Shown here piece after piece: positions 39,269 through 45,720 of a stretch of DNA of 64,000 bases. A model generated the notes under the pieces. It ran no database searches. It was not told where the DNA came from and saw nothing but the letters and a program-made list of their open reading frames with translations. The DNA is taken from NCBI RefSeq assembly GCF_003334785.1, contig NZ_QOWV01000001.1. One strand, written 5' to 3'. The position numbers and the translations under genes are program-made. This stretch comes from Escherichia coli (lineage in GTDB: Bacteria; Pseudomonadota; Gammaproteobacteria; Enterobacterales; Enterobacteriaceae). Within the stretch, counting starts at the first letter, position 1. Each line of letters begins with the position of its first letter.

Positions 39269-39982
39269 ATGGAATCATACTCGCAAAACAGCAATAAATT
39301 AGATTTTCAGCACGAGGCCAGGATATTAAACGGTATATGGCTCATTACCGCTTTAGGTTTGGTGGCAACCGCAGGACTAGCCTGGGGAGCTAAGTATCTC
39401 GAAATTACGGCAACCAAATATGATTCACCACCAATGTATGTCGCCATAGGGTTATTATTACTTTGTATGTATGGCTTAAGTAAGGATATCAACAAGATAA
39501 ATGCCGCCATCGCGGGCGTAATATATCTGTTTTTACTCTCTTTGGTGGCGATTGTCGTTGCAAGTTTAGTTCCTGTATATGCCATTATCATCGTGTTCAG
39601 CACTGCGGGCGCGATGTTTTTAATCAGTATGCTGGCCGGTTTATTATTTAATGTTGATCCTGGTTCTCACCGTTTTATCATTATGATGACGTTGACAGGG
39701 TTGGCCCTGGTAATCATCGTGAATGCGGCATTAATGAGTGAACGGCCCATTTGGGTAATAAGTTGCTTAATGATTGTGTTATGGTCAGGCATTATCTCGC
39801 ATGGACGAAATAAGCTCCTTGAATTGGCGGGGAAATGCCATAGTGAAGAGTTGTGGAGTCCGGTTCGTTGCGCTTTTACAGGTGCATTAACACTCTATTA
39901 CTATTTTATCGGCTTCTTTGGGATACTTGCCGCGATAGCTATAACGCTTGTCTGGCAAAGGCATACGCGTTTTTTTCATTAG
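39269..39982 (+). CDS. ybhM: BI-1-like inner membrane protein
   Basis: 237-aa polytopic membrane ORF; AT-rich by eye. Confidence 0.8.
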   Translation: MESYSQNSNKLDFQHEARILNGIWLITALGLVATAGLAWGAKYLEITATKYDSPPMYVAIGLLLLCMYGLSKDINKINAAIAGVIYLFLLSLVAIVVASLVPVYAIIIVFSTAGAMFLISMLAGLLFNVDPGSHRFIIMMTLTGLALVIIVNAALMSERPIWVISCLMIVLWSGIISHGRNKLLELAGKCHSEELWSPVRCAFTGALTLYYYFIGFFGILAAIAITLVWQRHTRFFH

Positions 39983-40017
39983 CCGTAAATGCACATACTA
40001 AAGAACTTAACTAAACT

Positions 40018-40974
40018 TCACATCGCCGCTTCATTTTTCGCCCGTAGCTTCTTCGCCTGGCTTTCCAGCAACAGGTAACAGATCAGCGCCAGCAGCAGTG
40101 GGATAAAGTAATACAGCACACGGTAAGCGAGTAGGGCGGCGATAATTGTACCTTTGGAGGTATGCTCCCCAGCCAGTAGTGCGATAAACACCGCTTCCAG
40201 CACACCGATCCCCGCCGGAATATGCACGATGACGCCAGCAATACTACTAACCAGTAACACGCCCAGTACAAAGAAATAGTTCACGCTTTGACCAAGTAAC
40301 AGCCAGATAATCGCCCCCATTACCATCCAGTTAACGCTGGAAATCAGCATCTGAGCGAGGGCGAATTTCCATGAAGGCAGCACCAGCTTTTGCCCTTTGA
40401 TGGTCATATGGCGGTGCTTCGCGAAAGCGCAAAACCACAAATAAACCGCGATAATCATCAGTAAGCCAATGCCGAGAATACGCAGCGTAGTTTGATCGAC
40501 ATACCAGTGATCCGGCAACTCCACCACGCCTGCGGTAAAGATAATCCCTGCCAGTAAAATGTAGCCCAGCCAGTTGGTGGTAATACTGAGCGAGAAAATC
40601 CGCGTAATAGTGCTACCGGGCAACCCCAGACGAGAGTACAAACGATAGCGCATACCAATGCCGCCGACCCAGGTACTGAGCGTCAGGTTGAAGGCGTAGC
40701 AGATAAACGACACCAGCATCACCTGGCGCTTCGCCAGTTTGTGACCGCAGTAAAAGCGGGCGAGCAGGTCATAGCAGCCGTAAATCAGATAGCTGACGAC
40801 CACCAGCCCGACCGCACTAAGCAGCGCAACGCGATTGTAGTCGCGGATGACCTTCCAGACCTCTTCCCAGTCCACTTTTTTGGCGTAGACCACCAGCAAC
40901 ACAATCACCGCGATAAAAAACAGCCAGGTGAGGATCTTCTTTGCTAAGCGCCAGCGCGGGTGTGATTTACTCAT
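40018..40974 (-). CDS. ybhN: Inner membrane protein, UPF0104 / lysyl-PG-synthase-like C-terminal domain family
   Basis: 318-aa membrane ORF; its start overlaps the clsB stop (TGATG). Confidence 0.85.
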   Translation of the reverse strand: MSKSHPRWRLAKKILTWLFFIAVIVLLVVYAKKVDWEEVWKVIRDYNRVALLSAVGLVVVSYLIYGCYDLLARFYCGHKLAKRQVMLVSFICYAFNLTLSTWVGGIGMRYRLYSRLGLPGSTITRIFSLSITTNWLGYILLAGIIFTAGVVELPDHWYVDQTTLRILGIGLLMIIAVYLWFCAFAKHRHMTIKGQKLVLPSWKFALAQMLISSVNWMVMGAIIWLLLGQSVNYFFVLGVLLVSSIAGVIVHIPAGIGVLEAVFIALLAGEHTSKGTIIAALLAYRVLYYFIPLLLALICYLLLESQAKKLRAKNEAAM

Positions 40975-42215: not shown

Positions 42216-42973
42216 AAATGAATCTCCGCACTTAAAGGGGCATGATCAGAAAGGTGTCGCCATGTCCGCAGCGGCAACGCGGTTGGCGCGCTGGCGCTGG
42301 CATTTTTGACGTAGATCCTGTCCAGTCGTAGTAGAGGAAATTGCACCGGAAACGTGCGCGCCGGGCGTCCGTGGGCGCGGGTAAAAATCTCATCCAGTCC
42401 GGCCTGCACTTTTAACGGATGATTAGCTTTTTGCCGCCAGTCATTGAAATCACCCGCCACCAATACCGGTTCGCCGTCCGGTAGCTCATTCACCCATTCG
42501 GCGAGCATCGCAAGCTGCGCCTGACGGTGCGCCTCACGCAGGCCCAGATGTACGCACATCACATGAATCGCTTTTCCGGTCATCGGCGGCACAATGCGGC
42601 AGTAGAGCACGCCGCGCTTTTCCGCACCATCGACCGAAACATCGCGATTCTCATAATGTTCAATGGGATAACGCGACAGTACGGCGTTGCCGTGATGCCC
42701 TTCCGGGTATACGGCATTGCGACCGTAGGCAAAATCGCTCCACATAGTGTCGGCGAGAAACTCGTAGTGCGAGGTATCGGGCCAGTTTTCCACATGCAGC
42801 GGATGAACTTCGTGCGCGCCCATCACTTCCTGCAGGCAAACAATATCGGCGCTGACGGTACGCACGGCGTCGCGAAGTTCCGGCAAAATGAAGCGTCGGT
42901 TAAACGCGGTAAAGCCTTTGTGAATATTGATGGTGAGCACCTTGAACGAAAATTGTTGTGTTTGATCGGGCAT
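42212..42973 (-). CDS. ybhP: Endonuclease/exonuclease/phosphatase-family protein
   Basis: 253-aa ORF; its stop overlaps the clsB start (ATGA). Confidence 0.85.
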
Positions 42974-43105
42974 AATTTTCCTGTCTTTGCCTCTTATCTC
43001 ATTGAAATAGTGTAGTCGGCGTCACAAAAAGGTGCGGTCTTACGGAATTTTCCGTAAAGTTCGGTACTCTGAGTAAGTAGAGATAAATTCTTCAGGAGAG
43101 AAGCC

Positions 43106-43516
43106 ATGAAGTGGCAACAACGTGTTCGTGTCGCAACGGGTCTAAGTTGCTGGCAGATTATGTTGCATTTACTGGTAGTGGCGCTGCTGGTGGTGGGCTG
43201 GATGAGTAAGACTCTGGTTCACGTCGGCGTGGGATTATGCGCACTGTATTGTGTCACGGTAGTGATGATGCTGGTGTTTCAGCGCCACCCCGAGCAACGC
43301 TGGCGTGAGGTGGCAGACGTGCTGGAAGAGCTGACCACGACCTGGTATTTTGGCGCAGCGCTGATTGTGCTGTGGCTGTTGTCCCGCGTTCTGGAAAACA
43401 ACTTTTTGCTGGCAATTGCAGGGCTGGCAATCCTTGCCGGCCCGGCGGTAGTGTCTTTGCTGGCGAAAGATAAGAAGTTACATCACCTTACGTCTAAACA
43501 TCGCGTACGCCGCTGA
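43106..43516 (+). CDS. ybhQ: Inner membrane protein
   Basis: 136-aa ORF with four predicted TM segments. Confidence 0.8.
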
Positions 43517-44584
43517 CCCTGTCGTGGCCGTTATCACCAGTAGCGGCCACAAACTATTCCACACAATATCCAGACTCGCATCCTTCAAATAAATCTGCTT
43601 GGTAATGTCCGTAAAGTGGCGAATAGGGTTAATCCACGTCAGGTTTTGCAGCCATACCGGCATGTTTTCCACCGGAGAAACGTAACCGGAAAGGAGAATG
43701 GCGGGCATCATAAAGACAAACACGCCGATAAACGCCTGCTGTTGTGTTGAACAGAGTGATGAAATCAACAGACCGAATCCCACCAGCGATAAACCATAAA
43801 TCACCATCGTAAAGTAGAACAGCGCCAGCGATCCGGCGAAGGGGATTTGATACGCCCAGATACCAATCGCCAGCACAATGGTGGCCTGGAAGGTGGCGAC
43901 AATTAACGCCGGTACGGCTTTGCCGATGAAGATCTGCCAGGTGGTGAGCGGCGAAACCAGTAGCTGATCGAGCGTACCTTGTTCACGTTCGCGGGCGACG
44001 GAAAGTGAAGTGACGATCATTACGCCGATAGTGGTGATCATGGCGATCAGTGACGGCACCACAAACCATTTGTAGTCGAGATTCGGGTTATACCAGTTGC
44101 GTACCACCAGCTCGCTGTTGTTAGGTTTCGGTTTTCCTTCCAGCAGCTCCTGCTGATAATTTTTGACGATCTGTTGCAGGTAGTTGGCGGCAATTTGCGC
44201 ACTGTTGGAGTTACGCCCGTCGAGGATCAACTGCAAAGGCGCGGTCTGGAAGGTATCCAGTTTGCGCGAGAAGTCAGCCGGGAAACGCACCAGTAGTAAC
44301 GCCTTTTGTGTGTCGATGGTTGGGCGGATCTCCTGTGGGCTTTTCAGCAGCAGCACATGAGTAAAGGCGCTGGCGCGGGCAAAACGTTGGGTCAGCTCCA
44401 CCGAATGCTCGCCGTTATCTTCATCGTAGATGGCGATGGTGGCGTTAGTCACTTCCAGCGTGGCGGCGAACGGGAACAGGATCACCTGAATTAGCACGGG
44501 TAAAATCAGAATCGCGCGGGTTTGCGGTTCGCGCAGCAACGACTGCAACTCTTTGCGGATTAACGTCCATAAGCGATGAAACAT
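43478..44584 (-). CDS. ybhR: ABC-2-type transporter permease
   Basis: 368-aa membrane ORF. Confidence 0.88.
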
Positions 44585-44594
44585 GCTCTTCTCC

Positions 44595-45720
44595 CTAATC
44601 CAGCCGACGTTTGGTTTTCAGCCACGTCAGGCCGATAAACATCACCGCCGAAGCGATCAAAAACAGCACGTTTACCACCAGCACCACTGGAATATTCCCG
44701 GCGAGGAACAGGCTTTGCAGGGTGCTGACGAAATAACGAGCGGGAATAATGTACGTCACCGCGCGGATCACCGCGGGCATACTGTCGATCTGAAAAATAA
44801 AGCCGGAAAGCATAATCGACGGCAGAAAAGCGGCGTTCAGGGCGACCTGAGCGGCATTGAACTGGTTGCGGGTAATCGTGGAAATCAGCAGCCCCATCCC
44901 CAGGGTACTGAGTAAAAACAGGCTGGAGATAAAAAACAGAATCAGCAGCGACCCGCGATACGGCACGCCGAGAATAAACACTGACACCAGCATACACAGC
45001 AACATCGCCAGCATCCCGAGAAAGTAATAAGGGATCAGCTTACACAGCAGCAGTTCCGTGCGGGTAATCTCCGTAGAGAGCAGAGCCTCCATGGTGCCGC
45101 GTTCCCATTCTCGCGCCACCACCAGCGAGGTGAGAATCGCGCCGATGACCGTCATGATAATGGTCACCGCACCGGGGATAATGAAGTGCTGGCTAATCGC
45201 CGCCGGGTTAAACCAGTAGCGGGTTTGTACATCAATAAGCGGTTCAAAAGTCTGCCCGTTGTCCTCCGCTCGCTGCATTTGCCAGATCTGCCAGATCCCT
45301 TCGACATACCCCTGTACAAAGTTAGCGGTATTCGGCTCACTGCCGTCGGTGATCACCTGAATCGGTGCGGTGGCGTTGGCGCGCTCCATCTGTTCCGCAA
45401 AATCCACCGGAATAACCACCAGACCGCGAATTTTCCCCGCCTGCATTTTGGCGATCAGTTCCTGACGGTTATCGCTGATGGTGGCGTCGATGTAGGGCGA
45501 ACCGGTCATGGTGTGGGTGAAATCCAGCGCCGCTTCGCTACGCTGTTCCAGTAAAATCCCGACCCGCAGCTTGCTGGAGTCGAGGTTAATGCCGTAACCA
45601 AAAATAAACAGCAGTAGCAGCGGGATCACTACCGCAATCAGCCAGCTACTCGGATCGCGAACGATCTGCCGCGTCTCTTTAACGCACAGCGCCCGTACGC
45701 GACGCCAGGACAGGATCGGG

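Follow-up and report, generated by a model that had tools for sequence, protein, structure and literature searches.

The 39-bp tail-to-tail overlap of ybhQ and ybhR in Escherichia coli: dual coding, transcript ends and the question of coupled expression

The genes ybhQ and ybhR of Escherichia coli converge on one another and share their last nucleotides. This arrangement raises the question of whether the overlap couples expression of the small membrane protein YbhQ to that of an efflux operon, as an earlier note on this DNA had proposed, or whether it persists through the two proteins that it encodes. Here, the geometry of the overlap, its conservation, the positions of the transcript ends and published expression data are considered together.

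The overlapping genes and their proteins

Positions refer to the window, the whole 64,000-nucleotide stretch of DNA that was analyzed. The two genes and their shared segment are arranged as follows.

43106-43516, + strand: ybhQ coding sequence, 136 aa, with the stop TGA at 43514-43516 (open reading frame list, sequence and RefSeq)
43478-44584, − strand: ybhR coding sequence, 368 aa, with the stop TAA as the complement of 43478-43480 (open reading frame list and RefSeq)
43478-43516, both strands: 39-bp dual-coding overlap, comprising the last 12 codons and the stop of each gene

The earlier note had described a 39-bp convergent 3′ overlap at 43478-43516, and the open reading frame list, the raw sequence and RefSeq all bear this out exactly. 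The same overlap is present in the RefSeq annotation of strain 720632 and of K-12 MG1655, where ybhQ lies at 824630..825040 (+) and ybhR at 825002..826108 (−), MG1655 and window coordinates being offset by 781524. The region is found at ≥95% identity in 5424 of 5426 complete E. coli genomes.

The ybhQ and ybhR frames share a register in which codon positions 1, 2 and 3 of the former face positions 3, 2 and 1 of the latter. The ybhR stop TAA is the complement of the ybhQ Leu125 codon TTA, and the ybhQ stop TGA is that of the ybhR Ser357 codon TCA. Stops in the ybhQ frame can arise in this register only from the ybhR codons TTA, CTA and TCA, which account for 16 of its 368 codons. Based on ybhR's own codon usage, a 13-codon antisense run stays open with a probability of about 0.59, and the length of the overlap is therefore unremarkable. 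It lies within chance expectation; what exceeds chance is its conservation.

YbhQ is an inner-membrane protein with homologues across Enterobacteriaceae. Its residues 1-132 match Pfam PF11076 (YbhQ family; E 2.6e-73), and no NCBIfam model was found for it. YbhR is an ABC-2 type permease that matches ABC-2 permease profiles and whose gene comes last in the cecR-ybhG-ybhF-ybhS-ybhR cluster. Its alignment with the RbbA permease profile extends through residue 365 of 368, and its C-terminus is therefore part of the family domain.

More distant YbhQ homologues (33-40% identity) were found at three reduced-genome loci, L086 (3001-3387), L088 (3001-3366) and L084 (3001-3387), in source records of 1.15 Mb, 0.59 Mb and 3.46 Mb, respectively. 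These proteins have short tails, and their genes have moa genes, ybhL or a DedA-family gene as neighbors, with no ybhR beside ybhQ at these three loci; two further contigs were too short for neighbors to be seen. The features of the three loci hint at a housekeeping role for YbhQ. Separately, databases contain YbhQ proteins of 157-165 aa (e.g., P0002) that carry a frameshift in or near the overlap (43490-43516). Such proteins represent either rare variants or errors of assembly; a real frameshift would also shift the frame of the YbhR tail.

The class of convergent overlapping gene pairs is defined by opposite-strand reading frames that share 3′ nucleotides, by both frames being real and conserved genes, and by retention of the overlap in orthologous pairs of other species. 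All testable defining features are found here, with 39 shared base pairs, two conserved genes and the same overlap in related species, and ybhQ-ybhR belongs to this class as a pair of real genes with a genuine tail-to-tail overlap of long standing. About 75 such pairs are known in E. coli K-12 (PMC4161906), and it is only between converging genes that overlaps of greater length tend to be genuine (PMC2478687). Like other prokaryotic pairs of this kind, which share 3′ ends on opposite strands and are conserved among related species, ybhQ-ybhR was most likely born by displacement of a stop codon. It shows no essential difference from them, although its exact conservation in about 18 named genera is perhaps broader than that of an average pair.

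Conservation of the geometry and constraint on the two frames

Conservation was assessed in 80 species loci, taken from a one-genome-per-species collection after alignment of diverse YbhQ homologues. The overlap measures exactly 39 bp in 66 of these Enterobacteriaceae loci, 62 of them identified by script and four on inspection (L006, L023, L037 and L048); three of the latter (L023, L037 and L048) have frameshifted ybhR sequences in which the geometry is still 39 bp. No overlap longer than 39 bp occurs among the 80 loci. The exact overlap is present in Escherichia, Salmonella, Citrobacter, Leclercia, Enterobacter, Kluyvera, Yokenella, Superficieibacter, Atlantibacter, Mangrovibacter, Siccibacter, Cedecea, Trabulsiella, Intestinirhabdus and Huaxiibacter, and also in some members of Kosakonia, Phytobacter and Pluralibacter.

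In the remaining 14 loci the genes lie 2 to 206 bp apart. These include three Kosakonia, two Phytobacter and three Raoultella species and Pluralibacter gergoviae. YbhQ has a different and mostly longer tail at the separated loci (...KSFGLHQ.G.AANP..HR-stop), and the alternative long tail is common to Kosakonia and Raoultella.

Two side observations arose from this collection. At two Raoultella loci (L070, 3436-3618; L074, 3439-3644), the spacer between ybhQ and ybhR repeats the tail codons of ybhQ together with spacer sequence over about 100 nt, in what looks like a local tandem duplication. Two near-identical loci of Enterobacteriaceae type, L056 and L060, are titled 'Chryseobacterium sp. 18061' and 'Citrobacter sp. 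18056', respectively, and the former is probably a mislabelled or contaminated assembly.

An overlap in annotation could in principle be an artefact, with one frame not translated to its annotated stop and the 39 bp coding for one protein only. The YbhQ tail gives some grounds for this possibility: it is variable, with poor conservation at residues 125-130, and it is short in distant homologues, which lack the terminal segment. In addition, annotated convergent overlaps of more than 60 bp often stem from 3′-end extensions (PMC2478687). However, the ybhQ frame contains no stop before 43514, annotation can misplace a start but not a stop, and the end of YbhR is homologous to its family profile.

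The pattern of substitution is also at odds with an artefact. A stop is present at the ybhQ stop position in all 66 overlap loci (TGA in 64 and TAG in 2), and both TAG cases require a non-synonymous change, Ser to Leu, in YbhR. Of the 14 separated loci, 8 have TGA at that position and 6 have a sense codon. With species counted as independent, the difference between 66/66 and 8/14 gives a Fisher p of 1e-5.

Opposite the last ybhQ codons, synonymous variation in ybhR is nearly absent, and this holds only for the overlap species. In these, codon −10 is GCG in 40 of 41 cases, codon −11 is GCG in all 24 species that keep Ala, and codon −12 is TCA in all 39 that keep Ser. Adjacent fourfold-degenerate codons use three or four synonyms, and codons −10 and −12 are relaxed in the separated species. 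This constraint on ybhR synonymous sites opposite the ybhQ end is indirect support, from sequence comparison, that both tails are likely translated. Taken together, these observations leave an annotation artefact extremely improbable.

The two tails differ in how they are conserved. The YbhR tail, TGS[A/V]AYAMFRRK.., is near-invariant in the overlap and separated groups alike. The YbhQ tail is conserved only at its last residues, KH.[V/I]R[R/H]-stop, which are the mirror reading of YbhR S-A-A-Y-A-M-F. The YbhR C-terminus therefore looks, as far as sequence comparison can suggest, like the original reading, and the basic YbhQ tail like one overprinted on the ybhR antisense strand; we infer this direction of overprinting. 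Under such a scheme, the ybhQ frame would run 13 triplets (12 codons and the stop) into the ybhR antisense strand and thereby acquire its basic C-terminal tail, and purifying selection on both proteins would then freeze the geometry. Dual coding is visible only at specific sites and not in overall nucleotide identity: identity to E. coli is 81.5% within the 39-bp overlap and 81.4% further up ybhR, and is thus not raised.

Transcript ends within the partner gene

There is no intergenic DNA at this locus, and therefore no intrinsic terminator can lie between the genes and each polymerase enters the partner gene. A consensus terminator and promoter scan of 42800-44800 returned no canonical terminator after either stop, a scan match at 43434-43448 falling inside ybhQ. 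An Rfam scan of 42900-43900, with E values up to 1, gave no match. The features that bear on the transcript ends are listed below.

43524-43550, + strand: stem-loop GTGGCCGTTA-TCACCAG-TAGCGGCCAC in the ybhQ 3′ UTR, GC-rich and conserved, inside ybhR codons
43556 (MG1655 825080), + strand: primary ybhQ mRNA 3′ end (Adams et al. 2021, Supplementary file 1)
43560-43658, + strand: C-rich, G-poor stretch leading to a Rho peak (MG1655 825182, Rho score 3.95)
43405-43477, − strand: 3′ untranslated extension of the ybhR operon, antisense to ybhQ, to a Rho peak (MG1655 824929, score 3.85)

The Term-seq 3′ end at 825080 (+) is classified as primary for ybhQ and antisense to ybhR, with two entries in Supplementary file 1 (PMC7815308). 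It lies 40 nt past the ybhQ stop, 79 nt into ybhR and 6 nt after the stem-loop. The stem-loop has a 10-11 bp stem, a minimum free energy of −18.5 kcal/mol and a z of −5.3 relative to shuffles. Across 55 species, 90% of cells in the 10-pair helix are paired, and compensatory double changes occur from GC to AU at the outer pair in 6 sequences and from CG to UA in 3. A Pro codon, CCG, in the 3′ arm is invariant (55/55). Conservation of the hairpin could be due in part to the YbhR codons that it contains (Trp-Pro, Ala-Thr) and to codon bias. Its strand preference leans weakly to the + strand, with 20 versus 7 wobble pairs and a more stable + fold in 37 of the 55 species.

Rho-dependent transcripts have been described that end precisely after a stable stem-loop with no U-run and with a rut site immediately downstream (Dar and Sorek 2018, PMC6061677). 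The ybhQ end shares the stem-loop, the precise 3′ end and the lack of a U-run, and a rut-like, C-rich region sensitive to bicyclomycin (BCM) follows it, with read-through on Rho inhibition mapped there at low positional resolution. In contrast to the ends described by Dar and Sorek, the ybhQ stem-loop lies inside the coding sequence of a convergent gene and also encodes part of the last membrane helix of YbhR. By analogy, the ybhQ mRNA can be placed among transcripts with a Rho-dependent 3′ end and a protective stem-loop. The ybhQ mRNA may thus be trimmed back to, or end at, the conserved stem-loop inside the ybhR codons, and we infer that the hairpin is the element that defines this end.

Alternatively, the hairpin could act as an intrinsic, factor-independent terminator of ybhQ, or as a bidirectional one for both genes, rather than as a barrier to exonuclease trimming after Rho action. 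Its strong and conserved stem, with a sharp 3′ end 6 nt downstream, would suit such a role. However, there is no U-tract on either strand, the + strand continuing after the hairpin with AAACTATTCC, and the consensus terminator scan did not list the element. A BCM-sensitive Rho region lies just downstream, and on the − strand the hairpin is within the translated ybhR frame.

Bidirectional intrinsic terminators (Ju et al. 2019; Wang et al., bioRxiv 10.1101/2022.10.23.513370) likewise involve a convergent pair with a stem-loop near the gene ends, and are characterized by an intergenic GC stem with an A-tract upstream and a U-tract downstream. This arrangement is seen on neither strand at ybhQ-ybhR, where the hairpin is not intergenic, A- and U-tracts are lacking and Rho dependence is reported on both strands. 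Intrinsic termination at the hairpin is thus quite improbable, and a Rho-dependent ybhQ end is the preferred reading.

Rho regions are reported on both strands, each inside the partner gene. That at 825182 (+), window 43658, is antisense to ybhR (score 3.95, p 5e-7; PMC7815308, Supplementary file 2), and that at 824929 (−), window 43405, is antisense to ybhQ (score 3.85, p 2.2e-7; PMC7815308). These regions derive from bicyclomycin read-through in 800-nt windows and are resolved only to hundreds of nucleotides. On the + strand, windows of 80 nt that cover 43460-43619 have a GC skew of −0.17 to −0.29, and the skew is near zero from 43580 on. RNA beyond each stop codon is antisense to a membrane-protein gene and, for that reason, C-rich; being untranslated as well, it would be open to termination by Rho.

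For the ybhR operon, a palindrome at 43421-43443, 35 nt past the ybhR stop on the − strand, was considered as a terminator and rejected. It is not conserved, with 64% of cells paired (− strand, 55 species) and a z of −0.75, no better than shuffles, and the end of the operon transcript is therefore attributed to Rho alone.

The dominant transcripts accordingly overlap over about 43405-43556, roughly 150 nt, or about 250 nt with read-through. The earlier note had also held that full-length transcripts of the two genes are mutually antisense. On this point the Term-seq end, the Rho regions in the partner genes, the antisense reads and the excludon listing described below agree with it.

A further Term-seq 3′ end was noted inside ybhQ at 824690 (window 43166, + strand), 60 nt into the reading frame; its Rho score is 0.6 and its intrinsic-terminator score 4.9 (Adams et al.). 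It could be a site of premature termination or of processing.

Coupling of expression and the role of the overlap

Overlapping convergent transcripts may allow one unit to depress the other, through polymerase collision or RNase III, such that YbhQ and YbhFSR would be expressed in opposition. Several observations are compatible with this possibility. The pair is among 165 convergent excludons called in ≥50% of 58 RNA-seq samples (ExcludonFinder, NAR 2025, PMC12288877), head-on polymerase collision at convergent pairs is a documented mechanism, and 66 of 80 species share the overlap. In wild-type total RNA (Huang et al. 2020, PMC7373196), sense and antisense reads are 111 and 5.0 RPM for ybhQ, 14.2 and 24.0 RPM for ybhR, and 16.2 and 1.2 RPM for ybhS, and antisense reads thus exceed sense reads over ybhR.

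Double-stranded RNA is raised to near-equal levels for the two genes. In four Illumina libraries of p19-captured RNase III dsRNA, ybhQ and ybhR reach about 205-354 RPM compared with 16-30 RPM for ybhS (PMC7373196), a roughly 10-fold excess, with the counts summed over each gene rather than resolved by position. These values are consistent with a duplex that forms at the shared end and is cut, which could matter in other conditions.

The coupling of YbhQ to the efflux operon that the earlier note suggested finds no support in the same data, which weigh to some extent against a strong effect: ybhR sense RNA (14.2 RPM) is about the same as that of the upstream gene ybhS (16.2 RPM), and RNase III mutants show no increase in either mRNA, with ybhQ at 99 and 65 RPM and ybhR at 11.6 and 6.2 RPM in rnc-14 and rnc-38, respectively (PMC7373196). 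Regions of 3′ overlap moreover yielded on average 37.9-fold less dsRNA than regions of 5′ overlap in that study (Huang et al., PMC7373196).

The excludon listing needs to be read with the geometry in mind, as such a call is automatic for overlapping coding sequences once both genes are expressed. Like other excludons, ybhQ-ybhR shows overlapping neighbor transcripts in published data. The defining outcome of excludons, however, is mutually exclusive expression; what the published data show for this pair is transcript overlap, and no de-repression is seen in rnc mutants. Conservation of the overlap is explained by protein constraint alone, and the separation of the genes in 14 species points the same way, against coupling, as do the distant ybhQ homologues that lie apart from any ybhR at the three loci noted above. 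Under standard growth, nothing in the data indicates meaningful coupling, and an excludon-type opposition of YbhQ and YbhFSR is considered unlikely.

Another convergent pair lies nearby in the window (39269-40974), where ybhM (+) and ybhN (−) are about 35 bp apart. The p19 dsRNA signal of ybhN is very high, at 434 RPM in one of the four Illumina libraries and 985-1255 RPM in the other three, and a Rho region at MG1655 821989 (+), window 40465, is antisense to ybhN. These signals point to strong transcriptional read-through from ybhM into ybhN.

Upstream of ybhQ, the divergent ybhP-ybhQ intergenic region (42974-43105) shows sigma-E binding in a Salmonella ChIP-seq study, and a ybhQ start site responds to sigma-E induction according to a tagRNA-seq study. 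A simple sigma-70 scan of the same region detected no promoter-like site. The sigma-E site and the stress-responsive ybhQ start leave room for condition-specific effects.

A more specific proposal is that the overlap and its embedded hairpin form a selected module, in which ybhQ transcription under envelope stress lowers the full-length ybhR message. Polymerase collision or RNase III would be the agent, and the hairpin would fix the site of collision or of the 3′ end. We assign this proposal only a small likelihood. Were it true, the level of an ABC efflux pump would be tied to the small membrane protein YbhQ.

The explanation that best accounts for the observations overall, and which we regard as probable, is an old dual-coding overlap with Rho-ended transcripts and no dedicated regulatory role. 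As such, the overlap is most likely a tolerated and now constrained piece of a compact genome layout.

Parts of this picture were available beforehand: the overlap itself is already known from standard annotation, the transcript overlap from the published excludon list, and the 3′ end and Rho regions from published Term-seq tables. The present analysis adds that the 39-bp geometry is held fixed in most Enterobacteriaceae, that constraint from the ybhQ frame is visible in synonymous sites of ybhR, and that the stem-loop marking the ybhQ mRNA end is conserved though it also encodes YbhR residues. If a regulatory effect were real, the pair would be one more excludon, touching the poorly understood pump YbhFSR. 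As it stands, the locus offers a tidy textbook example of how dual coding may combine with Rho-dependent end formation where two genes leave no intergenic space.
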